A stretch of 61,892 nt of DNA from an uncultured Methanosarcinales archaeon. Its GTDB lineage: Archaea; Nanobdellota; Nanobdellia; Woesearchaeales; GW2011-AR4. This document shows positions 8,746-55,187 of the stretch, in pieces. The translations under genes and the position numbers were made by a program. The stretch covers positions 1 through 61,892 of the forward strand of contig CAYXMT010000001.1 of assembly GCA_964466175.1 (NCBI GenBank). Direction: 5' to 3'. Position 1 is the first letter of the stretch; each line of letters starts with the position of its first letter. The notes under the pieces are model-generated. The model ran no database searches and was not told the DNA's origin. It saw only the letters and a program-made list of their open reading frames with translations.

Positions 8746-8869
8746 GGCGGTGTAGTTCAGCCTGGTTCAGAGCGCTAGACTCATATACTTGAGTTATGAA
8801 GCATTTATGCTGATGATATACCTCAACCGGGTTATCTAGAAGTCGTGAGTTCAAATCTCGCCACCGCCA
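8746..8869 (+). tRNA. tRNA-Met or Ile2 (anticodon CAT) with a 48-nt intron after position 37
   Basis: GGCGGTG-TA-GTTC..GAGC-G-CTAGA-CTCATA [intron 8786-8833] A-TCTAG-AAGTC-GTGAG-TTCAAAT-CTCGC-CACCGCC-A. The anticodon stem lacks the GGG/CCC initiator signature. Confidence 0.85.
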
Positions 8870-11299: not shown

Positions 11300-12415
11300 A
11301 TGAAAAAAGTTATTTTGATAGGTGCTGGCATTATTGGCTTGAGCATTTCTTATTATTTAAAAAAAGAAAATTGCGAAGTTGTCATTCTGGAAAAAGGCAA
11401 AGCAGGATCAGAAGCATCATACGCATCAGCAGGCATGCTTGCATCACAATCAGAATTTGATTTCTATGAAGATTTTATGGATTTCTGTATTCAAAGCAGA
11501 GACATATACAGTGATTATTGCAAAGATATAGAAAATGCTTCTGGAATTAATGTTGAATTTCAAAAATGCGGAATGATAAGGCCTGCCGTAACCGAAGAAC
11601 AGGAAAAACATCTGAAAGCTAATTACGAATGGCAGAAAAAGAGAAATCTTGAAATAGAATTTCTAGATGGAAATGAATTAAGAAATATAGAGCCAAACTT
11701 ATCCAAAAACATAATTTCAGGATTATACACTAAAAATGACGGCCAGGTCAACAACAGGAAATTGATGGAAGCCTTAATTATGGCCAATAAAAAAATCAAC
11801 AACAAAATTATTGAAGATTGCGAAGTTACAGATTATTTGATTGAAAACAATAAAGTAACTGGCGTAAAAACAAACAACGGAATTTTTAATGCAGATATTG
11901 TAATAAATACCGCTGGAGCATGGTCATCATTAATCTCCAAAAATATAATCCCAAACTTTGAAGTAAAGCCAATCCATGGCCAGATGGTTTCCCTACAATC
12001 TGATAAAAAAATACTCAACAAAGTAATATTCGCATCTATACTAGGAAAGGGGGGCTATATAGTGCCAAGAAAAAACAATGAAATTGTTTTAGGCTCTACA
12101 ATGGAAGATATTGGTTTTGAAAAAAAGATTGATGAAGAAAGCATAAACTCTATCCTAAAAACTGCTTTTGATATTGTTCCTGAATTTAAGAATCTGAAAA
12201 TAAAGGAAAAATGGTCTGGTTTTAGGCCATTTACTGAAGATAAGCTGCCAATAATCGGAAAAACAAACATTGAAAACTTAATCCTGGCAACAGCGCATGG
12301 AAGAAACGGAATCCTTTTAGCCCCAATAACTGCAAAAGCAATAACAGAACTTGTCATAAACAACAATATCATTCCAGAAATAAAAGATTTCGGTGTTGAT
12401 AGATTCAATAATTAG
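11300..12415 (+). CDS. thiO: FAD-dependent glycine oxidase-like oxidoreductase (thiazole biosynthesis)
   Basis: Rossmann motif KKVILIGAGIIGLSISYYL, DAO-family length, adjacent to thiE-thiG-thiS. Start placed at ATG 11300. Confidence 0.65.
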   Translation: MKKVILIGAGIIGLSISYYLKKENCEVVILEKGKAGSEASYASAGMLASQSEFDFYEDFMDFCIQSRDIYSDYCKDIENASGINVEFQKCGMIRPAVTEEQEKHLKANYEWQKKRNLEIEFLDGNELRNIEPNLSKNIISGLYTKNDGQVNNRKLMEALIMANKKINNKIIEDCEVTDYLIENNKVTGVKTNNGIFNADIVINTAGAWSSLISKNIIPNFEVKPIHGQMVSLQSDKKILNKVIFASILGKGGYIVPRKNNEIVLGSTMEDIGFEKKIDEESINSILKTAFDIVPEFKNLKIKEKWSGFRPFTEDKLPIIGKTNIENLILATAHGRNGILLAPITAKAITELVINNNIIPEIKDFGVDRFNN

Positions 12416-13032
12416 AAATTTTTAATTTTTGCTGCTAACTCAGAAGCAGCCTCCTTCACATTCTCTGCACTCACAACCGCACTAATTACAGCAACACTTT
12501 TCACACCTTGCTCTAGAACTGAATCAATATTATCCTTATTTATTCCACCAATAGCAATCAATGGTTTTTCTATCTTCCCTAAAACTTCTTTTATCATTCC
12601 AGTACCAACAGTATAATCTTTCACTCTTGTTTTGTATACCGGTCCTATTGTAATGTAATCAACATCTTCTTCATTAGCTTTAACAGCCTGCTCTACACTA
12701 TGGGTTGACAAACCAATAATCAATTTATCTTTACAAATTTTTCTTGCATCTGCTATAGACATATCACTTTGCCCAAGATGAACGCCATCTGCTCCAATTT
12801 CCAAAGCAGCGTCAACATAATCATTCAGAATAAAAAGAACATTATTTTCTCTGCAAACCTTCAACAATTTAATCGCTTCCTTTTTAACATAATCTTTACT
12901 CCAAGATTTTTCCCTTAATTGAATTATCTCTGCACCGCCAGCAATAGCTTCTTTAACAACTTCTTCATTACTTTTACCATTAGAAATACCGCTTTCAGTT
13001 ATTACATATAATTTATTTTCAAAGGTTTTCAT
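12412..13032 (-). CDS. thiE: Thiamine-phosphate synthase
   Basis: 206 aa TMP-TENI fold pattern (ADGVHLGQSD, IAIGGI) in a thi gene neighbourhood. Confidence 0.8.
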   Translation of the reverse strand: MKTFENKLYVITESGISNGKSNEEVVKEAIAGGAEIIQLREKSWSKDYVKKEAIKLLKVCRENNVLFILNDYVDAALEIGADGVHLGQSDMSIADARKICKDKLIIGLSTHSVEQAVKANEEDVDYITIGPVYKTRVKDYTVGTGMIKEVLGKIEKPLIAIGGINKDNIDSVLEQGVKSVAVISAVVSAENVKEAASELAAKIKNF

Positions 13033-13054
13033 AATGAAAAGAAATTATTATTTT

Positions 13055-13828
13055 TTATTTAATAGTCCCATCAACAGGACTGGAAGCACTTGCATACAAT
13101 TTCTTTGGAATCCTTCCGGATAAATAAGCATCTCTTCCGCTCTCAACAGCTAGTTTCATAGCCTTAGCCATCCTAACAGGATCTTTAGCTAATGCAACAC
13201 CAGTATTCAATAAAACACCATCTGCACCCAATTCCATAGCAATTGTTGAATCAGAAGCAGTTCCAACACCAGCATCCACAATTATAGGAACTTTAGCTTG
13301 CTCCAAAATTATTTTTATATTATTTGGATTCAAAATCCCCTGTCCAGAACCAATTGGAGCTCCAAGAGGCATAACCGCACTAGCTCCGGCATCCTCTAAT
13401 TTCTTTGCATAAACAACATCATCATTAGTATAAGCTAAAACAGTAAAACCTTCCTTGACCAAAACCCTGGTTGCTTTCAAAGTTTCCTCATTATCCGGCA
13501 TAAGTGTTTTTTTGTCACCAATCACTTCCAGTTTAACCCAATTAGGCAAACCTGCAGCAACTGCAAGCCTTGCAGTTCTTATAGCTTCTTCTGCAGTAAA
13601 GCAAGCAGCAGTATTTGGCAGTATAGTAATTTTATCTGTATCAATATAACTCAACAATGATTTATCGCTTTTATCGTTTAAATCAACTCTTCTTATAGCA
13701 ACAGTAACAACTTCAGCACCAGAAGCTTCATGAGCTTTCTTCATTATTTCAAAATTCTCATACTTCCCAGTACCTATGAATAATCTTGAATTGAATTCAA
13801 ATTTTCCAATCTTTAAAGTTTCATTCAT
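13055..13828 (-). CDS. thiG: Thiazole synthase
   Basis: 257 aa with [28 protein letters not shown] and [10 protein letters not shown], typical of ThiG. Confidence 0.88.
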
Positions 13829-20465: not shown

Positions 20466-21173
20466 TTAACCACCTTTCCTTATTTTTGATTGTTTTACAA
20501 TTGCGCCATCACTCAGGAACTCAATCCTGTCAGCATTGTGCGCTACATTTACGTCATGAGTGACCATGATGATTGTTTTTCCTTCTTTCCTGTTTAAGTC
20601 CTCTAAAAAATTAATAACTGTTTTACCTGTAGTAGAATCAAGGTTTCCTGTAGGCTCATCCGCTAAAACAACTTCCGGTTCATTTGCCAAAGCCCTTGCA
20701 ATTGCAACACGCTGCTGCTGGCCGCCTGAAAGTTCAGTAGGCCTGTGATCCATCCTGTCTCCTAAATCAACCATCTCCAGTATGTGTTTTGCCTTCTCAA
20801 CCCTTTCTTCCCTGCCAATACCCTGGAACACCATGGGCAAAGTAACATTTTCCAATGCACTTAGCGTATTTATCAGATTAAACTGCTGGAATATAAAACC
20901 AATTTTCTTGCCTCTTATCTGGGCCAAATCAGACTCAGACAGCTTTGAAATATCCTTCCTTTCAAGATAAATCTTGCCTTTGCTTGGGATATCCAATGCG
21001 CCAACCATGTTTACAGCAGTTGATTTGCCGGAACCTGATGGACCCATTATTGCAACAAACTCCCCGCGTTTAATTTTTAAATTCAGCCCCCTGAGTGCAT
21101 TGACCTTAACTTCCCCCATCTGGTATGTTTTCCATACATTATCCAATTCGATTATTATATTATTTTTTCCCAT
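20466..21173 (-). CDS. ABC transporter ATP-binding protein (MacB/LolD-like)
   Basis: Walker [10 protein letters not shown], signature LSGGQQQR, Walker [13 protein letters not shown]. Confidence 0.9.
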
Positions 21174-21548: not shown

Positions 21549-22178
21549 TTATTTCTCAACAAGCACAGCCCTTATTGGACTTCCATCCCCGCCTTTAATC
21601 TTTAATGGCAGCCCAACAAAGAAATATCTTCCGGCCTTTACATTGCATACTTCAAGCCCCTCAATAATAGGAATATCCTTATTAAACAATATTTTATGTG
21701 TGTCATGATTTGGAGAGTTTCTCTCAATACTTAAATTTTCTACTCCAACACATTTAACCTTTTTCCCTGCGAGATACTTTGCCCCGGTTTTATCCAGGTA
21801 AGTGTAGTTTCCATCCCATTTTTTTAAGGGTTTCTTCATGGTTTTTAATATCACTATGTCATTTTTTTTAATTGATGAACTTATTTTTTTAGTGCTTAAA
21901 TCCTCCACAGTAATCTTGTCTTTCTTATTCGAAAAATCCAGCACAACACAATCGCCAATAAACTTGCCAACATCCATCTTTTCCATGGTCTTCCCCTTGG
22001 CAAGCATATGGAAATAAGCATCTGCATGAGTCCCTGTATGGCTCTCAATATAAAGCTTTGATTCATTAGCTCCGTTTTCTAAAGACCCTGTTGCAACAAA
22101 TTTGAATTTTTTCCCTTCCTTGTTCTTGTAAACAGTCATCCCTTCTCTGATTTCCATCGATATGTCGTAGACTTTCAT
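21549..22178 (-). CDS. Cyclase-family protein / kynurenine formamidase-like
   Basis: HxGTHxDxxxH motif (SHTGTHADAYFH). Start placed at ATG 22178 (MKVYDISMEI) with SD GAGGTG 8 nt upstream. The track start at 22187 is a GTG overlapping the SD. Confidence 0.75.
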   Translation of the reverse strand: MKVYDISMEIREGMTVYKNKEGKKFKFVATGSLENGANESKLYIESHTGTHADAYFHMLAKGKTMEKMDVGKFIGDCVVLDFSNKKDKITVEDLSTKKISSSIKKNDIVILKTMKKPLKKWDGNYTYLDKTGAKYLAGKKVKCVGVENLSIERNSPNHDTHKILFNKDIPIIEGLEVCNVKAGRYFFVGLPLKIKGGDGSPIRAVLVEK

Positions 22179-22246
22179 TTTGAACACACCTCTGTTTTAT
22201 GGACTTTCAAAATGGAAGCTACGAACGATAGTGAGTTTGTTTTCAT
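22176..22246 (-). promoter_or_regulatory. Conserved leader element F, copy 1 (start-codon-pairing hairpin, SD in the loop)
   Basis: Sense strand: AUGAAAACAAACUCACUA..CGUUCGUAGCUUC-CAUUUUGAA-[21-nt loop with GAGGUG]-UUCAAAAUG. About 84% identical by hand alignment to 51374-51480. Confidence 0.5.
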
Positions 22247-23751
22247 TTTTTGTTCAAAAATTCTGCATAATATGGTTTTGTTGGTACTACCCATTTACGC
22301 TTGTCTTTCTCAAGCAATTTATCTGCTTTTTTAGGGCCCCATGTTCCGGGTTTGTAAAAAGTTGGCTCTACATTATGCCATGCATCTCTTATAAAGTCAA
22401 TGATCTTCCATGCATTTTCAACCTCATCCCATCTTGCGAATAAGGTTTGATCACCTTGCATAACATCGTGCAGCAATCTTTCATATGCTTCTGCTGACTC
22501 TGGTCCAAACTTGCATTCGTGGCAATAACTCATATCAACCGAATCAATAAGGATTTTATTTCCGGGAATTTTGGAATTAAACTTAAATGATATGCCTTCA
22601 TCTGGCTGCACCCTTACTGTAAGAATGTTATTTTCTATTTTATGGTCTTTGTTGAACAATCTGTCTGATGATTTTTTGTATATGATATTTATTTCTGTTG
22701 CTCGTTCCTTTAACCTCTTTCCGGTTCTTATATAAAATGGAACATTCTTCCAGGTTTTATTATCAATCAAAAATTTTATGGCAAAGTAAGAACTGGTAGG
22801 AGAATTAGGTCTCATACCTTCTTCCTGCCTGAATGAAATTATTTTCTTTCCATTTACAGTTCCGGAAGTATATTGCCCTTTAACAGTGTCTCTCTTTATA
22901 TTTTTGATCTTTGCTATTGATTTTAAAATCTTCACTTTCTGGTCTCTTATATCATCTGCATCCAGGCTTTTTGGTGCTTCCATGGCTGTAAGACAAAGTA
23001 GCTGGATAATATGATTTTGGACAATATCTCTTAATGAGCCGTTTTTATCATAAAATGGCCCTCTATTTTCTACACCCAACGTTTCCGCAACCGTGATTTG
23101 GACGTGGTCTATATATTTTGTATTCCACAACGGTTCAAATATTAGGTTTCCAAACCTCATTACAATTAAATTTTGCACAAGTTCCTTGGCTAAATAATGG
23201 TCAATCCTGTAAATCTGGTTCTCATTGAAAACTTTCCTTATTTCTTTATTTAGATTATTTGCAGTCTTAAGATTTTTTCCAAATGGTTTCTCAAATACAA
23301 CCCTGCTGTAGCGTCCTTTTAAGTTTTTGCTTACCAAACCTACTTGATTCAGGTTTTTTACAATGCCATTAAAAAAATCAGGCAGGGTAGCAAGATAGAA
23401 AACCCTATTGCAGGCAGTTGTGTGTTGTTTTGATAATTTTTCTATATATTTCCTAAGGCCAATATACTTTTTTTTTTGATAAAATTCCAGCCGATAGTAG
23501 TGTATACGGTTCAAAATTCTATTTAGGATTTTTTCCTCTACTTTCCTCTTGGAAAACTTGCTTATTGAGGCTTTGGCATCTTCTCTGTACTGTTCAGTTG
23601 TCTTTTCCCGCCTTCCAACGCATACAATGGAAAAATTATCTCCTAAGTATTGTTCACTGTCTAAAAAATATAATGCCGGCAGCAACTTTCTATGGGTTAA
23701 ATCTCCAGTTGCTCCGAATATGGTAAATATGCATGAATCTTTTTCATCCAT
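22243..23751 (-). CDS. zwf: Glucose-6-phosphate 1-dehydrogenase
   Basis: FGATGDLTHRKLLPAL, RIDHYLAKE, EKPFG. 502 aa. Confidence 0.9.
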   Translation of the reverse strand: MDEKDSCIFTIFGATGDLTHRKLLPALYFLDSEQYLGDNFSIVCVGRREKTTEQYREDAKASISKFSKRKVEEKILNRILNRIHYYRLEFYQKKKYIGLRKYIEKLSKQHTTACNRVFYLATLPDFFNGIVKNLNQVGLVSKNLKGRYSRVVFEKPFGKNLKTANNLNKEIRKVFNENQIYRIDHYLAKELVQNLIVMRFGNLIFEPLWNTKYIDHVQITVAETLGVENRGPFYDKNGSLRDIVQNHIIQLLCLTAMEAPKSLDADDIRDQKVKILKSIAKIKNIKRDTVKGQYTSGTVNGKKIISFRQEEGMRPNSPTSSYFAIKFLIDNKTWKNVPFYIRTGKRLKERATEINIIYKKSSDRLFNKDHKIENNILTVRVQPDEGISFKFNSKIPGNKILIDSVDMSYCHECKFGPESAEAYERLLHDVMQGDQTLFARWDEVENAWKIIDFIRDAWHNVEPTFYKPGTWGPKKADKLLEKDKRKWVVPTKPYYAEFLNKK

Positions 23752-24637
23752 TTTTTTTCACGGCATGTCCCCCAAACTCTCTCCTAATGGCAGCTATTGT
23801 CCTTTTTCCCAGAATAAATTTCTTGCTCTTATCCTCCCTTATTTTTACAGCAGTTTCAAAAGCAGGTACATAACCCTTTACAGCTTTAGCTGTTTTCTTA
23901 AGCTCTTCTATTGTAACGCTTCCGATTTTTGGGCTTATTTTCTTAAAATCAGGCCTTTTAAGGGCAGTATTCTCCAAATCCAATAGCCAGCTGTTTATCA
24001 CGCTTGCAGGCCTCCATACAGAAGTTGCTTTAACCATGTCAATAGGCTGCTTAAAATTATTCAGTAATTCAGTACCTTCAGCCAGGCCCTGCAGATATAC
24101 ATATTCAATAATATTGTGCACACTTTTTACAAAATGCCCTGCACCAACATCCCCAAAATGGCCGTAACCTCCTTTTGCAGATAAAGCTTTAACAAAAGGC
24201 TCAATATGCTTGAACTGGTTTTTTGGCCCGCCAACCATTAAGGTATAACCATTCTTCAGCCCCCACACTCCGCCGGAAACACCGCAATCAAAAAAATGAA
24301 CACCATAGCGCTTGCACCATTTATTGTGCTTCTCTGCATTCTCATAGAAATCATTAGCACCATCAACAAGAATATCTCCTTTATTCAGCAATGGAAGAAC
24401 TTTTTTAATCATGGCATCTGTAACTTTTCCGGCAGGCAGCATAACCCAGACAATTTTCCTTCCAGAAAGCTTACTCACTAGTTCCTCAACGCTAGAAGCA
24501 GGAATAGCACCTTTCTTGGAAATTTGCCTTGTTTTTTCCGGACTCCGATTGTATGCAACAACTTTAAGATTATGCTTAAGAAGTCTCTCAACCATATGAA
24601 AGCCCATTCTGCCCAATCCAATAAAGCCAAGTTTCAT
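23744..24637 (-). CDS. gnd: 6-phosphogluconate dehydrogenase, short (about 300 aa) decarboxylating type
   Basis: MKLGFIGLGRMG Rossmann N-terminus, GGVWGLKNGYTLMVGG, overlaps zwf by 8 nt. Confidence 0.8.
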   Translation of the reverse strand: MKLGFIGLGRMGFHMVERLLKHNLKVVAYNRSPEKTRQISKKGAIPASSVEELVSKLSGRKIVWVMLPAGKVTDAMIKKVLPLLNKGDILVDGANDFYENAEKHNKWCKRYGVHFFDCGVSGGVWGLKNGYTLMVGGPKNQFKHIEPFVKALSAKGGYGHFGDVGAGHFVKSVHNIIEYVYLQGLAEGTELLNNFKQPIDMVKATSVWRPASVINSWLLDLENTALKRPDFKKISPKIGSVTIEELKKTAKAVKGYVPAFETAVKIREDKSKKFILGKRTIAAIRREFGGHAVKKNG

Positions 24638-39443: not shown

Positions 39444-39597
39444 TCTAAATACATGTAATATCCGAGAATATAGCACTTAAAGCAACCCTAGAAGCGCTCT
39501 GTATGAACTCGGGCTAAGAAGAAACAGGAACTAAGTTTGGTTTATAAAAGTTGCGGAAATCCTATGAATTTCAATTCTTTATATAAAAATAAATTAT

Positions 39598-48241: not shown

Positions 48242-48327
48242 AGCCCCGTAGTCTAGCGGTCAAGGATATCGGCTTTTGGACGCTTGGAAAACAGCCGACG
48301 GCCCAGGTTCGAATCCTGGCGGGGCTA
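48242..48327 (+). tRNA. tRNA-Gln (anticodon TTG) with a ~13-nt intron after position 37
   Basis: AGCCCCG-TA-GTCT..GGAT-A-TCGGC-TTTTGG [48280-48292] A-GCCGA-CGGC-CCAGG-TTCGAAT-CCTGG-CGGGGCT-A. Confidence 0.8.
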
Positions 48328-48350
48328 CTTAATCTTTTTATAATTATGCT

Positions 48351-49575: not shown

Positions 49576-50472
49576 TCAAACTTTTCTTTCAACAACAAAA
49601 TCAGCCAATTCATTAAAGAATTTAAACCCTTCTTCATTCAGCTTAGCTTTCTCTAAATATTTTTTAGCCTCAACAGTCTTATTTTTTGCATAAGTTCCTG
49701 CATCTTTCATTGTCTTGCTTAAATCCATCATATCATCATGAATTTGAAAAGCCAATGCCATGCTGTCTGCATATTTATCCAAAGCTTCCAATTGAAAATC
49801 TTTTGCATTATTTAACAAAGCTCCAAACTTTATAGAAGAAGAAAACAAAGGGCCTGTTTTCGCAGCTGCCATTTTAACATAGTCTTCTTCCTTGATATCT
49901 TTATCTGCAGAAATGCATAAATCAAGCATCTGGCCTTCATTAATTCTGGCATAAGCATCATTGAAAATCTCCAGGGATTTTTTCTTAATGCTGTCATCTA
50001 AATTAGAATCTAAAATGCATGACTTTGACAATGAAAACAATATATTTCCCTGCAAAACAGCCATTGAAACAGAAAATCTTTTTGAATGACTGTTAAACAA
50101 ATCTCCTTCACAAGCAGAATCTGAAAAATTTTTCTTGAAATACGCCTCAAATATTTTATGCATTGTTGGCTTATCCCTCCTTAGTAAATCTTCATCCATC
50201 ATATCATCATGTATCAATGAAGAAGCATGTATAAGCTCTGGAACAATGCAAACAGGATAAATCTTACTCTCATCAGAATCATTAATTGCCTTAAATGACA
50301 TTATAGTGGCTATAGGCCTCAATCTCTTGCCAGGCCTTAAAGTAAATTCCTTAAGATAACCATAGCTTTCCTTTAGAAAGTCATCGTCTTTCTTTATCCC
50401 ATTATCAAAGAATTTAATTAATTCATTGTCAATGATTTTTTTATAATTATCCAGACTATTGTTAAATTCCAT
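49576..50472 (-). CDS. idsA: Polyprenyl (geranylgeranyl) diphosphate synthase
   Basis: First DDxxD in LIHDDMMDEDLLRR and second in QIHDDMMD. Confidence 0.85.
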   Translation of the reverse strand: MEFNNSLDNYKKIIDNELIKFFDNGIKKDDDFLKESYGYLKEFTLRPGKRLRPIATIMSFKAINDSDESKIYPVCIVPELIHASSLIHDDMMDEDLLRRDKPTMHKIFEAYFKKNFSDSACEGDLFNSHSKRFSVSMAVLQGNILFSLSKSCILDSNLDDSIKKKSLEIFNDAYARINEGQMLDLCISADKDIKEEDYVKMAAAKTGPLFSSSIKFGALLNNAKDFQLEALDKYADSMALAFQIHDDMMDLSKTMKDAGTYAKNKTVEAKKYLEKAKLNEEGFKFFNELADFVVERKV

Positions 50473-51388
50473 TTGTAATGTTCCTTATTTTATCAACAAC
50501 TTCATTTATAGTAATATCAGGTGTAGAAGCTCCTGCTGTTACACCAATATTCTCTTTGCCATTAAACCATTCTTTTTCCAATTGCTCAGCAGATTGTATA
50601 AAATAAGTCTCAACACCCAACTCTTTGCTTTTTGCTGCCAATTCTTTTGAATTGCTTGATTTTTTGCTGCCAATTACAATCATTACATCTGCTTTATTTG
50701 CTATTTCCTCTGTATCTGACTGTCTTTGCTTTGTAGGATTGCAAATAGTATCCACAAAAACAAAATTCTTTTCAATATCTTTCAAATTCAAAGAAAGCTG
50801 CTCAAATTTGTTATCAAAAATATCATTAATATTGTTTATTAATTTCTTATAGCCATCAACTGACATTGTTGTTTGGGAAATTATCGCAACTTTCTCAAAT
50901 TTATTCTTATTTATGTGCTCAATAACAGAAGAAGCATCATCTGGACTTTCAACAATAAACGTATCTTTGCCTTTGATATGATAGCTGGTTCCTATACTCT
51001 CCGGATGGTCACGCTTTCCAAATATAATAACCTCATAGCCATTGTTTTTCAGTTTAATTACAACATTATGCACCAAGGTTACTAATGGACATGTAGCATC
51101 ATTAAGCTTCTCATTCTCAATGTTTTTCCCCTTTAATTCCTCATATGTTGTTCCTGGTTCGCCATGCGCCCTTAAAACAGTAACAGAATTCTTAGGAATT
51201 TCTTCAATATTATCTGCAAAAATAATATTTTTCTTCTTCAGATCATCAATAACTCTTTCATTATGCACAAGCTGCCCGTAAACATATGTTTTTCCATTTA
51301 ATGCAGTATGCTCTGCTATATCTATTGCTCTCTTGACTCCAAAACAGAATCCGGCATGTTTCGCTACGGTTATTTTCAATTTGAACAT
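50462..51388 (-). CDS. ispH: 4-hydroxy-3-methylbut-2-enyl diphosphate reductase (IspH/LytB)
   Basis: HAGFCFGVKRAI, LVHN, ATCPLV, DTICNPT. The true start may be TTG 51379 (MKITVAK...), which aligns with the cyclase ATG in the shared leader. Overlaps idsA by 11 nt. Confidence 0.85.
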   Translation of the reverse strand: MFKLKITVAKHAGFCFGVKRAIDIAEHTALNGKTYVYGQLVHNERVIDDLKKKNIIFADNIEEIPKNSVTVLRAHGEPGTTYEELKGKNIENEKLNDATCPLVTLVHNVVIKLKNNGYEVIIFGKRDHPESIGTSYHIKGKDTFIVESPDDASSVIEHINKNKFEKVAIISQTTMSVDGYKKLINNINDIFDNKFEQLSLNLKDIEKNFVFVDTICNPTKQRQSDTEEIANKADVMIVIGSKKSSNSKELAAKSKELGVETYFIQSAEQLEKEWFNGKENIGVTAGASTPDITINEVVDKIRNITNGI

Positions 51389-51480
51389 GCCTCCGTCTTA
51401 TGGATTTTCAAATTGAAAGCTACGAACGTCCCAGAGGGATACAGGAACGTTAGTGATTGTATTAGTGAGTATGTTTTCAT
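51374..51480 (-). promoter_or_regulatory. Conserved leader element F, copy 2 (with an extra internal hairpin)
   Basis: Sense strand: AUGAAAACAUACUCACUA...[ACGUUCC..GGGACGU hairpin]..CGUUCGUAGCUU-UCAAUUUGAA-[21-nt loop with GGAGG]-UUCAAAUUGAAA. The 12-bp stem is 51374-51385 / 51407-51418. Confidence 0.5.
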
Positions 51481-52079: not shown

Positions 52080-53615
52080 CTAATGCCAAAACAATCTAAG
52101 CCCTGTAAACACCATTGCCATATTGTGTTCATTAGCAGCTTCTATAACTTCTTTGTCTTTTATAGACCCCCCTGGTTGGATTATAGCAGTAATTCCGGCT
52201 TTAGCAGCTTCATCAATCCCGTCTCTAAACGGAAAGAATGCGTCAGATGACATAACAGCGCCTTTTGAGTTCTTTCCTGCTTTTCTTCCTGCAATTTTTA
52301 CTGAATCCACTCTTGACATCTGGCCAGCCCCTATTCCCACTGTTTGATTGTCTTTTGCAAAAACTATTGAATTGGATTTAACATGCCATGTTACATTAAA
52401 AGCAAACTTTAATTGCTTTAATTCTTCTGCAGTTGGATTTCTTTTTGTCACAACCTTAAGATTTTTCTTCAATATAGCAGAAATCGGAGAATCTCTTGAT
52501 TGCACCAATAAGCCACCAACAACTTTTTTTGCATAATAGCTTTTTTCTGATTTTTTTATTCCGCCAGTTTCCAGCAGCCTTATATTTTTCTTTTCCTTTA
52601 GAATTTTCAAAGCATTTTTCTCAAATTTTGGGCACATTACAACTTCCATAAACAAGGGCCTGATTAATTTTGCAACTTTCTCATTGCAGTCCCTGTTTAA
52701 GGCAATAATACCTCCAAAAGCTGATAAAGGATCTCCATCATAAGCTTTTTTGAATGCTTCTTCTATTGTATCTGCAATTGCGCAGCCAGCAGGATTAGTA
52801 TGCTTTACAACTGTTGCAGCAGGCTCCTTGAATGTCTTTACAAGCTCAAACGCATTATCTATGTCTAAGATATTATTGAAAGAAAGGGCTTTTCCATGCA
52901 GCTGCTTGGAAGTTCCAATGGAACTTTCATAAATGAAAGGATCAACATAAAAAGCTGCCTTTTGATGCGGATTTTCACCATACCTTAAATCCTGATTTTT
53001 CTTGAAAGTTAAATTAAGTGTATCAGGAAACTTTCCGCTTCCAAACTTTTCATTAAAATACTCATTTATTATTGTATCATACCTTGCAGTATGCTCAAAA
53101 GCTTTTAGTGCAAGATTTTGTTTTAATTCCTCGTTTATTTTTTTCTTTTTTATTTCTTCCAGCACCACATTATAATCCTTAGGGTCAACGATTACCAAAA
53201 CATCTTCAAAATTCTTTGCAGCAGCCCTTACCATAGAAGGCCCGCCAACATCAATATTCTCAATAGATTCCTTAAAACCTGCATTCCTCCCTACTGTTTC
53301 TTCAAAAGGATAAAGATTGACAACAACAATATCTATTAAATCAATTTTATTTGCTTTTAGCTCTTTCATATGCTTCTTATTTTTCCTTAAAGCTAGTATT
53401 CCCCCAAAAATCTTTGGATGCAAACTTTTGACACGACCATCCATCATCTCCTTACTTTTAGTGTATTTAGAAATCTCTGTCACAGGAATTTTTCTTTTCT
53501 TCAACAGTTTTGCAGTCCCTCCGGTAGACAATATCTTTATTCCTAATTTATTCAGTTCTTTAGCAAACTCAACAATACCTTTTTTGTCTGATACTGATAT
53601 CAAAGCCGTTTTCAT
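52080..53615 (-). CDS. purH: Bifunctional AICAR transformylase / IMP cyclohydrolase
   Basis: MKTALISVSDKKGIVEFAKEL...STGGTAK; 511 aa. Confidence 0.9.
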   Translation of the reverse strand: MKTALISVSDKKGIVEFAKELNKLGIKILSTGGTAKLLKKRKIPVTEISKYTKSKEMMDGRVKSLHPKIFGGILALRKNKKHMKELKANKIDLIDIVVVNLYPFEETVGRNAGFKESIENIDVGGPSMVRAAAKNFEDVLVIVDPKDYNVVLEEIKKKKINEELKQNLALKAFEHTARYDTIINEYFNEKFGSGKFPDTLNLTFKKNQDLRYGENPHQKAAFYVDPFIYESSIGTSKQLHGKALSFNNILDIDNAFELVKTFKEPAATVVKHTNPAGCAIADTIEEAFKKAYDGDPLSAFGGIIALNRDCNEKVAKLIRPLFMEVVMCPKFEKNALKILKEKKNIRLLETGGIKKSEKSYYAKKVVGGLLVQSRDSPISAILKKNLKVVTKRNPTAEELKQLKFAFNVTWHVKSNSIVFAKDNQTVGIGAGQMSRVDSVKIAGRKAGKNSKGAVMSSDAFFPFRDGIDEAAKAGITAIIQPGGSIKDKEVIEAANEHNMAMVFTGLRLFWH

Positions 53616-53676
53616 TTTTCAATTATTTTATTTTTTCAATATTTATTATTAATCATTGTTTTTTCTTTATTGTACT

Positions 53677-54285
53677 TTATTCCGAAATTGTAACTTCGCT
53701 ACCTTCAACTTTAATCTTCCCTTCCTCATACAATTTAATAGCTTTAACAATAACTTCCTGCTCTGCTTTTTGCACTTTTGCCTTTAAGCTTTCAATTGTT
53801 TCATTTTTCTCAACATCAACTTTTTTCTGCAGAATTATAGGACCACCATCAACTGATTCATCAACAAAATGCAATGTACATCCAGTTTCCTTTACACTGG
53901 ATTTAAGAACTTCTGCATGCACATCCTTGTCCATTCCACCCGCAAATGCCGGCAATAAAGAAGGATGAATATTCATTATTTTGTTTTTATATTTACCAAC
54001 AAACCAGGAACTTAAGATTCTCATATAGCCAATAGCCAATACTAAATCAACATCATGTTTTTCCAGTTCTTTAGAAACTTCTCTGTCAAATTCTTCCCTT
54101 TCTTTGCCTTTAGAATCAATAAACTTAGCTTCAATATTATGCTCTTTGGCCCTTTCTAGAGCATAAGCATCTTTTTTATTGGAAATAACAACAGAAATCT
54201 TAGAATTTATTTTTTTGGATTCTATAGCATCAATTACTGCCTGCATGTCAGTCGCTTTTGTTGATGCTAAAACTCCGATGTTCAT
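53677..54285 (-). CDS. purN: Phosphoribosylglycinamide formyltransferase
   Basis: NIHPSLLPAFAG and HFVDESVDGGPII. Start placed at ATG 54285. Confidence 0.85.
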   Translation of the reverse strand: MNIGVLASTKATDMQAVIDAIESKKINSKISVVISNKKDAYALERAKEHNIEAKFIDSKGKEREEFDREVSKELEKHDVDLVLAIGYMRILSSWFVGKYKNKIMNIHPSLLPAFAGGMDKDVHAEVLKSSVKETGCTLHFVDESVDGGPIILQKKVDVEKNETIESLKAKVQKAEQEVIVKAIKLYEEGKIKVEGSEVTISE

Positions 54286-54344
54286 ATAATCAATCACCGG
54301 TGCCATTCAGAAAATATAGTAGTTTATAAATCTTTGTGTTGTCC

Positions 54345-55187
54345 TCAAAACCCTCTCTTAATCTCCATAGCCTTCAAAGTATTATCCAGCAGCATAGCAA
54401 TTGTCATTGGCCCTACACCACCTGGAACAGGAGTAATATATCCAGCAACTTCTTTTACATTATCAAAATCAACATCTCCGACAATACCTGAAGGAGTTCT
54501 GTTAATCCCGACATCAATAACTATTGCGCCTTTCTTTACCATATCTTTCTTAATCAGCTTTGCTTTGCCAACAGCCGCAATAAGAATATCAGCATTTTTT
54601 GTATACTCCTTGAGATTTTTAGTTCTTGAATGGCATATAGTTACTGTACAATTTTCCTGTAATAAAAGTAAAGCAGCTGGTTTTCCTACAATAGATGATC
54701 TGCCAACAATAACTGCATTTTTTCCTTCTAATTTAACTCCAGTTGACTTAATTAATTCTAAACAGCCTTTGGGAGTTGCAGGCACCATGATATTATTATC
54801 ATTAATCAGATTTCCCAAACTTAAAGGAGTAAATCCATCAACATCTTTCTGGGGAAGTATCCCATCTACTACAAAAGTTTCATTAATATGCTTAGGCAAA
54901 GGCAGCTGCACAATAAAACCATGGATTTTTTTATCCTGGTTCAATTCATCGACAATTTTCACCAATTCATTTTGCGATGCATTCTCTTCAAGATTAAATC
55001 GCTTGACATAAAAACCGATTGATTTGGCTTTTTTCTCCTTGCTGTTGACATAAATTTCAGAAGCAGGATTAGAACCAACCTTAACTATTGCCAGTCCTGG
55101 TTTTCCAGTAAGCTTCTCAACTTTTTTCTTAATATCTTCAAGAAACTTACCTGAAACTTCCTTCCCATCAATTATCTTTGCAGTCAT
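54345..55187 (-). CDS. folD: Methylenetetrahydrofolate dehydrogenase/cyclohydrolase
   Basis: 280 aa; GRSSIVGKPAALLL, PVPGGVGPMTIAML. Confidence 0.9.
   Translation of the reverse strand: MTAKIIDGKEVSGKFLEDIKKKVEKLTGKPGLAIVKVGSNPASEIYVNSKEKKAKSIGFYVKRFNLEENASQNELVKIVDELNQDKKIHGFIVQLPLPKHINETFVVDGILPQKDVDGFTPLSLGNLINDNNIMVPATPKGCLELIKSTGVKLEGKNAVIVGRSSIVGKPAALLLLQENCTVTICHSRTKNLKEYTKNADILIAAVGKAKLIKKDMVKKGAIVIDVGINRTPSGIVGDVDFDNVKEVAGYITPVPGGVGPMTIAMLLDNTLKAMEIKRGF

Follow-up and report, generated by a model that had tools for sequence, protein, structure and literature searches.

A short, probably mobile repeat that occupies and rebuilds translation start sites in DPANN archaea

The 61,892-nt contig CAYXMT010000001.1 (the whole stretch that was analysed, referred to here as the window) carries two copies of a short element at the starts of two minus-strand genes, one encoding a cyclase (PF04199) and the other being ispH (PF02401). 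These copies are very probably members of a dispersed family of short, non-autonomous insertion repeats of DPANN archaea, the basic form of which is 68 nt long. The element occupies start sites of the type (A)AAATGAAA. The original ATG of the gene becomes the first codon of a near-invariant 29-nt block in the element, which also brings a 5' arm and a loop containing a Shine-Dalgarno site, followed by a 3' arm in which ...AAAATGAAR is formed anew as the working start. Taken as a whole, the evidence makes it likely that this is a mobile repeat, resembling MITEs (miniature inverted-repeat transposable elements) and repetitive extragenic palindromic (REP) sequences, which neutralises its own insertion by means of a relay upstream open reading frame (uORF), the Shine-Dalgarno site and the hairpin.

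An initial annotation of the window had described the 5' regions of the two genes as alike and as folding into a hairpin that displays a Shine-Dalgarno site in a 21-nt loop and holds the start codon in its 3' arm, and both descriptions hold. Block 2, which runs from CGTTCGTAGC to TGAAA, has 47 identities in 55 aligned positions (22171-22227 versus 51372-51428), and block 1, AAAAATGAAAACAwACTCACTA, is identical at 21 of 22 positions. The joint pattern of block 1 and CGTTCGTAGC has two matches in the window with 0.00 expected from window shuffles, and the likeness of the two copies is far beyond chance. In copy 1, at the cyclase gene, CTTCCATTTTGAA pairs with TTCAAAATGAAAG, and in copy 2, at ispH, CTTTCAATTTGAA pairs with TTCAAATTGAAAA; the loops contain AGAGGTG or GGAGG, and the folding z-scores are -3.0 and -2.2, respectively. 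A nested insert of 34 nt separates block 1 from block 2 in copy 2. The working starts are an ATG for the cyclase gene and a TTG for ispH (Table 1). Orthologous IspH proteins begin with M[KNEQ]I.VAKHAGF and orthologous cyclases with MKIYDISMEI, and the MFKLK and VFKMK extensions in the open reading frame (ORF) translations are therefore not real, as had been suspected of the MFK- N-termini.

Insertion is visible at orthologous sites that lack the element. In two loci (L098 and L099) the cyclase is 71% identical to that of the window and the gene order FKBP-6PGD-zwf-cyclase is the same, and there the TGA of zwf, the gene for glucose-6-phosphate dehydrogenase, overlaps the cyclase ATG (...TTTTTGAATAAAAAATGAAAATCTATGAC). 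The zwf/cyclase junction of the window is this sequence plus exactly 68 nt, and the zwf TGA (22243-22245) overlaps the block-1 ATG instead. L100, which is less closely related, likewise shows the ATGA overlap without an insert and provides a third empty cyclase site. The empty ispH site in L091 reads ...TCAATAATAAAATGAAAATTATAGTAGCA, and the same site in the window reads ...TTCAATAATAAAAATGAAAA, 101 nt of insert, TAACCGTAGCG. The ispH sites of L093 and L094 are likewise empty, and L020, whose ispH is 74% identical, has the element with a different nested module. Block 1, which had been taken for a segment of an upstream leader, thus holds the original start codon of the gene. Across the family, the block-1 ATG is overlapped by the TGA of an upstream ORF in 13 of 35 copies; in other copies an upstream stop lies 4-38 nt before it, or the ATG has a Shine-Dalgarno site of its own. 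Cyclase homologues with N-terminal extensions were considered as further carriers of the element and were rejected, the extensions being gene-calling overlaps with zwf.

Table 1. Features of the two copies of the element in the window
Feature	Coordinates	Strand	Evidence
Copy 1 insert, 68 nt relative to the empty zwf/cyclase junction; direct repeat AAAATGAAA(A/G) at the flanks	22172..22239	-	Alignment with L098/L099; third empty site L100
Copy 1 near-invariant 29-nt block ATGAAAACAAACTCACTATCGTTCGTAGC; ATG 22244-22246 is the original cyclase start	22218..22246	-	
Copy 1 putative relay uORF encoding MKTNSLSFVASILKVHKTEVCSK*; TGA 22175-22177 overlaps the rebuilt ATG 22176-22178	22175..22246	-	
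Copy 1 hairpin 5' arm CTTCCATTTTGAA	22206..22218	-	
Copy 1 loop, 21 nt, Shine-Dalgarno-like AGAGGTG 22187-22193	22185..22205	-	
Copy 1 hairpin 3' arm TTCAAAATGAAAG, with working cyclase ATG 22176-22178	22172..22184	-	
Copy 2 insert, 101 nt relative to empty ispH sites	51373..51473	-	L091, L093, L094
Copy 2 conserved block, left half ATGAAAACATACTCACTA; ATG 51478-51480 is the original ispH start	51463..51480	-	
Copy 2 nested sub-module of 34 nt, ATACAATCACTAACGTTCCTGTATCCCTCTGGGA, with an ATACA/TGTAT hairpin, between the two halves of the conserved block	51429..51462	-	
Copy 2 conserved block, right half CGTTCGTAGC	51419..51428	-	
Copy 2 hairpin 5' arm CTTTCAATTTGAA	51407..51419	-	
Copy 2 loop, 21 nt, GGAGG 51390-51394; ATG 51386-51388 is the false MFKLK start	51386..51406	-	
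Copy 2 hairpin 3' arm TTCAAATTGAAAA, with working ispH TTG 51377-51379	51373..51385	-	
Copy 2 putative relay uORF, 34 codons, encoding MKTYSLIQSLTFLYPSGTFVAFNLKIHKTEACSN*; TGA overlaps the TTG start	51376..51480	-	

Metagenomes were scanned with a pattern (TGAAA....ACTCACT, a gap, then GTTCGTAGC) that leaves the hairpin and everything downstream of it unconstrained. The scan returned 60 loci from marine and groundwater samples, about 45 of which are distinct true copies, and the contigs bearing them are those of marine and groundwater DPANN archaea (Woesearchaeota/Nanoarchaeota-like). The copies share a common plan in which the block ATGAAA(G/A)CA(T/G/A)ACTCACT(..)CGTTCGTAGC is followed by an arm of 12-13 nt, a loop and the complementary arm, ...AAAATGAAR. 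The loops are 5-27 nt long, or longer where they contain nested inserts, and usually include GGAGG or GAGGT. Of 35 short copies, 34 have a real ORF beginning at the ATG or TTG of the 3' arm. Besides ispH and the cyclase gene, the genes served include, based on their N-termini, atpB (in five lineages) and genes for ribosomal proteins L13 and S9, GluRS-like, PyrI and RNase Z-like proteins, pilin-like proteins, epimerases, glycosyltransferases and small membrane proteins, and they have no evident function in common. Chance resemblance or a one-off local duplication of the two loci is hardly credible as an explanation. A covariance model of the element does find two copies only in the 62-kb window, yet the idea is refuted by dozens of copies at many genes in independent metagenomes from different habitats. 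The initial annotation, which had called for a search for further copies, had itself named a recent local duplication as the outcome that would undo it; the element did turn out to be a repeat, but one of a dispersed family rather than a local duplicate.

Outside the metagenomes, a search of the genome collection gave one true copy (L021), lying between a TGA-ending ORF and atpB at an atpA/atpB junction, and two chance matches. The L021 copy (contig CAYVTQ010000033.1) is in a metagenome-assembled genome (MAG) labelled 'Methanosarcinales', but this bin label is doubtful, as the atpB start there is almost the same as in groundwater DPANN-like contigs. Applied to the window and 409 kb of related loci, the covariance model found no further or decayed copies except tandem units and one variant in L091. 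Two patterns run against viral contigs gave zero matches or only an unrelated phage gene, and the plasmid and phage collections gave no match. As had been anticipated, the element belongs to no RNA class in Rfam 15, in which only two tRNAs of the window reach the gathering score and sensitive scans of both loci gave nothing better than E = 0.77. A tRNA identity of the core was ruled out with ARAGORN, and the element is not described in the literature searched on the core sequence and on DPANN MITEs.

Several features of the family are those of a spreading repeat. Within subfamilies, near-identical loops precede different genes, as is the case for the cyclase copy of the window, L059 and L075, and for the 'CATTTCAAA/TTTGAAATG' group. 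Three whole units stand in tandem at L057:4795-5103 (+), and the core alone is found in tandem as three copies at L035:483-619 (-) and as two copies at L061:2360-2416 (+). A sub-module of 33-39 nt (ACA..hairpin..TGT-CCCTCTGGGAC) is nested in the core at five loci, namely window copy 2, L020, L032, L068 and L075. L055 has the same sub-module as window copy 2, but in the hairpin loop; L020, L032, L068 and L075 carry a 39-nt relative of it. Dispersed copies (about 45) together with insertion polymorphism at orthologous sites, which are empty for both window genes, are what is expected of a MITE. In a hydrothermal-vent metagenome (run X10; window 22192-22248) contigs end at the conserved block, where word depth rises from about 28 to 104 (approximately 3.7-fold); the repeat thus fragments assemblies at gene starts.

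Some single loci add detail on the core. The loop of the sub-module in the window and L055, TCAC[TA]AACGTTCC, resembles the core of the main element. The L091 variant (20704-20785, -) has the same core with other arms (ATCAAACAAACA/TGTTTGTTTGAT) and lacks a start codon. Its position is antisense, in the interval that separates a nucleotidyltransferase gene from the S13 gene, and the matching intergenic region of the window (39477-39597) has no copy. At L051:5770-5836 (-) a tRNA-Arg(ACG) gene on the opposite strand is followed, 7 nt further on, by the left half of the block (TGAAAACATACTCACT), and GTTCGTAGC is supplied there by the reverse complement of the anticodon loop of that tRNA; this may be a coincidence or may point to where the core came from.

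The hairpin was analysed in an alignment of 32 distinct short copies (window 22170-22252 among them) with a 13-bp helix, in which 91.1% of the cells of the start-codon helix are paired on the sense strand. Both-sided changes occur in 6 of the 13 pairs (30 cells), a result matched by none of 500 shuffles, and slid controls reach 31-58%; the same helix is obtained with RNAalifold. In codon 2, the synonymous third base (AAA or AAG) covaries with the 5' arm: 21 copies have U-A, seven have C-G and none has U.G. One instance of this covariation is the T/A difference in the 5' arm, which had been noticed to match ATG versus TTG at the two window genes; the combination of CAA with TTG recurs in L020 and L048, and L069/L084 break the compensation by having CAA with ATG. 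There is an unexpected asymmetry between the strands. Of the 37 unpaired cells on the sense strand 27 are C.A, and the helix has only one G.U; on the complementary strand pairing rises to 97.6%, with 28 wobble cells. Such a pattern would be expected of a structure kept on the antisense strand, and it hints at a single-stranded DNA hairpin during spread or at an antisense RNA. The mRNA hairpin is nevertheless perfect or near-perfect in most copies, although covariation alone does not prove a role in mRNA. A local palindrome, GCYTTC-ATTTT-GAARGC, was also considered and was set aside as weakly supported.

Some copies appear to have been resident for a long time. At five atpB loci and at three loci of another gene ('KESFD') the arms are identical at 11-13 of 13 positions, and at the same loci identity is 40-64% at synonymous third positions and about 50-80% in the loops. 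L054 and L067 have one rare core variant in common, and L033 and L052 have one loop in common. These observations indicate that at least some copies are orthologous and old, with their arms held by selection at the resident site while the loops drift. Such retention is also what one would expect if the element were a dedicated cis-regulatory RNA in which the invariant 19-29-nt block acts as a sensor and the hairpin switches the start codon for a regulon, much as the initial annotation had proposed in calling it a shared leader. This alternative accounts for a covarying helix that hides the start codon and places the Shine-Dalgarno site in its loop, as well as for the high conservation of the block, and ATGAAAGC of block 1 could pair with GCTTTCAT as an alternative helix (85% of cells paired). 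The alternative helix shows no covariation, however, and its mismatches are uncompensated; the asymmetry of the main helix favours the opposite strand, and there is no match in Rfam. A dedicated leader that defines a regulon is further argued against by empty orthologous sites at both genes, by served genes that are unrelated and have no common function, and by tandem cores and nested modules of the kind typical of repeats. A regulatory RNA of this type is thus distinctly improbable.

A uORF that starts at the original ATG has 23 codons (34-37 in long forms), and in about 30 of the 45 copies, including both window copies, its TGA overlaps the rebuilt start. It is open in all 24 of the distinct in-phase short copies, whose loops are very different, compared with 13.5 expected from loop shuffles; for the two remaining frames the counts of open copies are 17 and 7. 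Within the block, the positions that vary freely are the first of their codons and the third position is fixed, indels of 1 nt occur within the block (L040, L048, L062 and L087), the C-terminal half of the uORF is variable and the GAGGT motif changes frame between copies. Purifying selection on the peptide, the mark of a leader peptide, is therefore not seen, and we read the pattern as suggesting selection for translation through the element and not for a peptide product. It is very improbable for the same reasons that the uORF is a conserved micro-protein gene (23-36 aa, MK[AT]xSLxFVA...) translationally coupled to its neighbours, despite its open frame, the ATGA overlaps at both ends and the N-terminal consensus MKAYSLxFVAFIL; in addition, an I/N change in the peptide tracks base pairing and not chemistry. 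In frame-shifted copies the TAG within CGTTCGTAGC ends the uORF immediately ahead of the 5' arm, and a ribosome terminating at this TAG would presumably still cover the 5' arm.

The overlap of stop and start as ATGA or TTGA in about 30 of 45 copies is the arrangement of a termination-reinitiation pair, and termination-reinitiation is established at ATGA overlaps in archaea (PMC6728339). In the proposed relay, ribosomes would initiate at the original ATG, often through ATGA coupling to the upstream gene, and would translate the uORF of about 23 codons, melting the helix as they do so. Termination at the UGA that overlaps the rebuilt AUG or UUG would be followed by re-initiation there, aided by the internal Shine-Dalgarno site. 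The insertion would thereby be nearly neutral and the gene would retain its native translational input. Copies that silence an essential gene would be lost, and the survivors would be the 'self-repairing' ones. While the element spreads, the inverted repeat probably also acts as a hairpin of single-stranded DNA, formed by the complementary strand. The chances that translation proceeds by this relay are about even. A search of metatranscriptomes matched only one short contig, which lies inside the cyclase gene. Inspection by eye also raised the possibility of a promoter in the element, with an archaeal TATA box or with -10 boxes of the sigma type, but these readings were rejected, as the transcription start site would fall within or after the Shine-Dalgarno site.

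Alternatively, the inverted repeat could be purely a structure for mobility, a single-stranded DNA hairpin on the complementary strand (of the HUH/REP or attC type), with any effect on translation being incidental and the gene expressed through the Shine-Dalgarno site of the element. The better pairing of the complementary strand, with its 28 wobbles in place of the 27 C.A mismatches of the sense strand, argues for this view, as does the GTAG directly 5' of the hairpin foot, a likeness to REP sequences. L050, an apparently recent copy with an exact 33-nt repeat, has a 5' arm in which the match to the gene-specific spacer is already present. That the uORF is open in every in-phase copy is not predicted by a role in DNA alone, though, and orthologous resident copies retain their arms long after insertion, which implies selection at the level of the host; a gene for an HUH or other transposase was not seen among the window ORFs scanned. 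On balance, a role confined to DNA is unlikely.

The interpretation of the element as a mobile repeat that neutralises its own insertion has to be weighed against several observations. No transposase, integrase or autonomous relative is present among the approximately 40 window ORFs scanned. The flanking direct repeats are 5-10 nt long in most copies but 26 nt in L061 and 33 nt in L050, and the upstream copy always matches the family consensus; this variable length and fixed sequence do not fit a classical target-site duplication, and recombination in a short shared core (att-like or through microhomology) is a better fit than a staggered cut. As pairing in the helix is more complete on the antisense strand, selection may not act on the mRNA hairpin at all. 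The phase of the uORF is lost through 1-nt indels in about 10 of 35 copies. Finally, the conservation of the 29-nt block was partly forced by the search, as 21 of its 29 positions are fixed by the pattern. The two loci with long repeats show a further peculiarity: in L050:1791-1900 (-) and L061:2340-2480 (+) the loop, Shine-Dalgarno site and 3' arm exactly duplicate the upstream region of the gene itself, and the native gene start in L061 (ATGAAAGCATAC) is the first 12 bases of the element.

A bolder proposal is that the element homes to start codons by base pairing, its internal arm CTTTCATTTTGAA being complementary to the occupied site TTCAAAATGAAAG, and repairs the damage with its own ribosome-binding site and relay uORF, the invariant 19-nt core perhaps having been adopted by the host as a common point of attachment through which a trans-acting factor adjusts the translation of dozens of DPANN housekeeping genes. 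We consider this speculative and rather unlikely. If base pairing did choose the target, or if a host factor did act on the core, the family would represent a new programmable type of insertion or a global signal for translational control.

The window itself has a GC content of approximately 35%, identical contigs occur in marine metagenomes, and the closest named relatives of its IspH and cyclase are in 'Woesearchaeota' or 'Nanoarchaeota' MAGs. It includes an S13e/S15P ribosomal protein gene. These features place the window in a marine DPANN archaeon. Two tRNA genes, at 8746-8869 (+, 124 nt) and 48242-48328 (+, an 87-nt tRNA-Pro(TGG)), are overlong and presumably contain introns; ARAGORN missed the first of them. 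The window has many biosynthesis genes by the standards of DPANN archaea (49576-51379, 22243-24637, 52080-55187 and 12412-13828, all on the minus strand). These include the bacterial-type isoprenoid enzyme gene ispH beside a polyprenyl synthase gene, zwf with a 6-phosphogluconate-dehydrogenase-like gene, purH, purN, folD, and genes for ThiE/ThiG, NAD synthase and PRPP synthetase.

The family suggests how reduced, gene-dense archaeal genomes could tolerate selfish DNA, namely by its landing where the start codon, ribosome-binding site and coupling can be rebuilt. It also accounts for false MFK... N-terminal extensions, missed TTG starts and assembly breaks at gene starts in DPANN MAGs. In addition, its naturally occurring variants of the hairpin, the Shine-Dalgarno site and the uORF lend themselves to the study of translation initiation and re-initiation in archaea for which pure culture is not yet possible.

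Among known systems, the element resembles MITE-type repeats (Correia/NEMIS of Neisseria, ERIC and BOX/RUP) in being short, non-autonomous, multi-copy and polymorphic for presence or absence, and these repeats likewise form co-transcribed hairpins beside genes and can bring expression signals. A MITE census found a high MITE density in a Woesearchaeal genome (PMC11602168). The DPANN element differs from these repeats in being only 68 nt long without clear terminal inverted repeats at both ends; ATGAAAGC and GCTTTCAT flank only the 19-nt core and pair without covariation, and the long inverted repeat is internal or 3'-terminal. It differs also in its archaeal host, in a flanking repeat that varies in length and whose upstream copy is always the consensus (a MITE would have a target-site duplication of fixed length), and in the precision with which it sits on the start codon and regenerates it, with the uORF stop overlapping the new start.

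With REP/BIME sequences (RAYT, HUH Y1) and the PATEs derived from IS200/IS605 the element shares an imperfect palindrome right after GTAG and a similar size range, and CGTTCGTAG-C followed by the hairpin is found in all copies, GTAGC being part of the search pattern. Its strand-biased helix quality, which suggests a single-stranded DNA hairpin, is a further likeness to REP/RAYT systems. GTAG at the foot of a palindrome together with strand bias recalls the chemistry of REP/RAYT and IS200/IS605. REP sequences, however, are extragenic, usually lie 3' of genes and often form inverted pairs, whereas the DPANN element is single and sits on start codons, and its GTAG-bearing strand is the one with the poorer helix. 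No gene for a RAYT, Y1 transposase or TnpA was found among the window ORFs scanned. An integron attC site was considered as well, the helix being better on the bottom strand, but was rejected as GTTCAAA/TTTGAAC do not fit GTTRRRY/RYYYAAC.

Start-site hairpin coupling, as in the MS2 coat/replicase pair and in archaeal ATGA termination-reinitiation pairs (PMC6728339), is similar in that an upstream frame ends at or next to a helical start and in its ATGA overlaps; in the DPANN element the upstream frame comes from the inserted repeat and not from a gene, and the coupling is putative. Rickettsia palindromic elements offer a parallel of another kind, as a repeat that survives at or inside genes since expression is not destroyed, but they are in frame and translated within the protein, unlike the DPANN repeat with its separate uORF ending on the rebuilt start. 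We would file the element as a small palindromic repeat, not described in the literature searched, that is tolerated at genes in the manner of Correia, ERIC, REP and Rickettsia palindromic elements.

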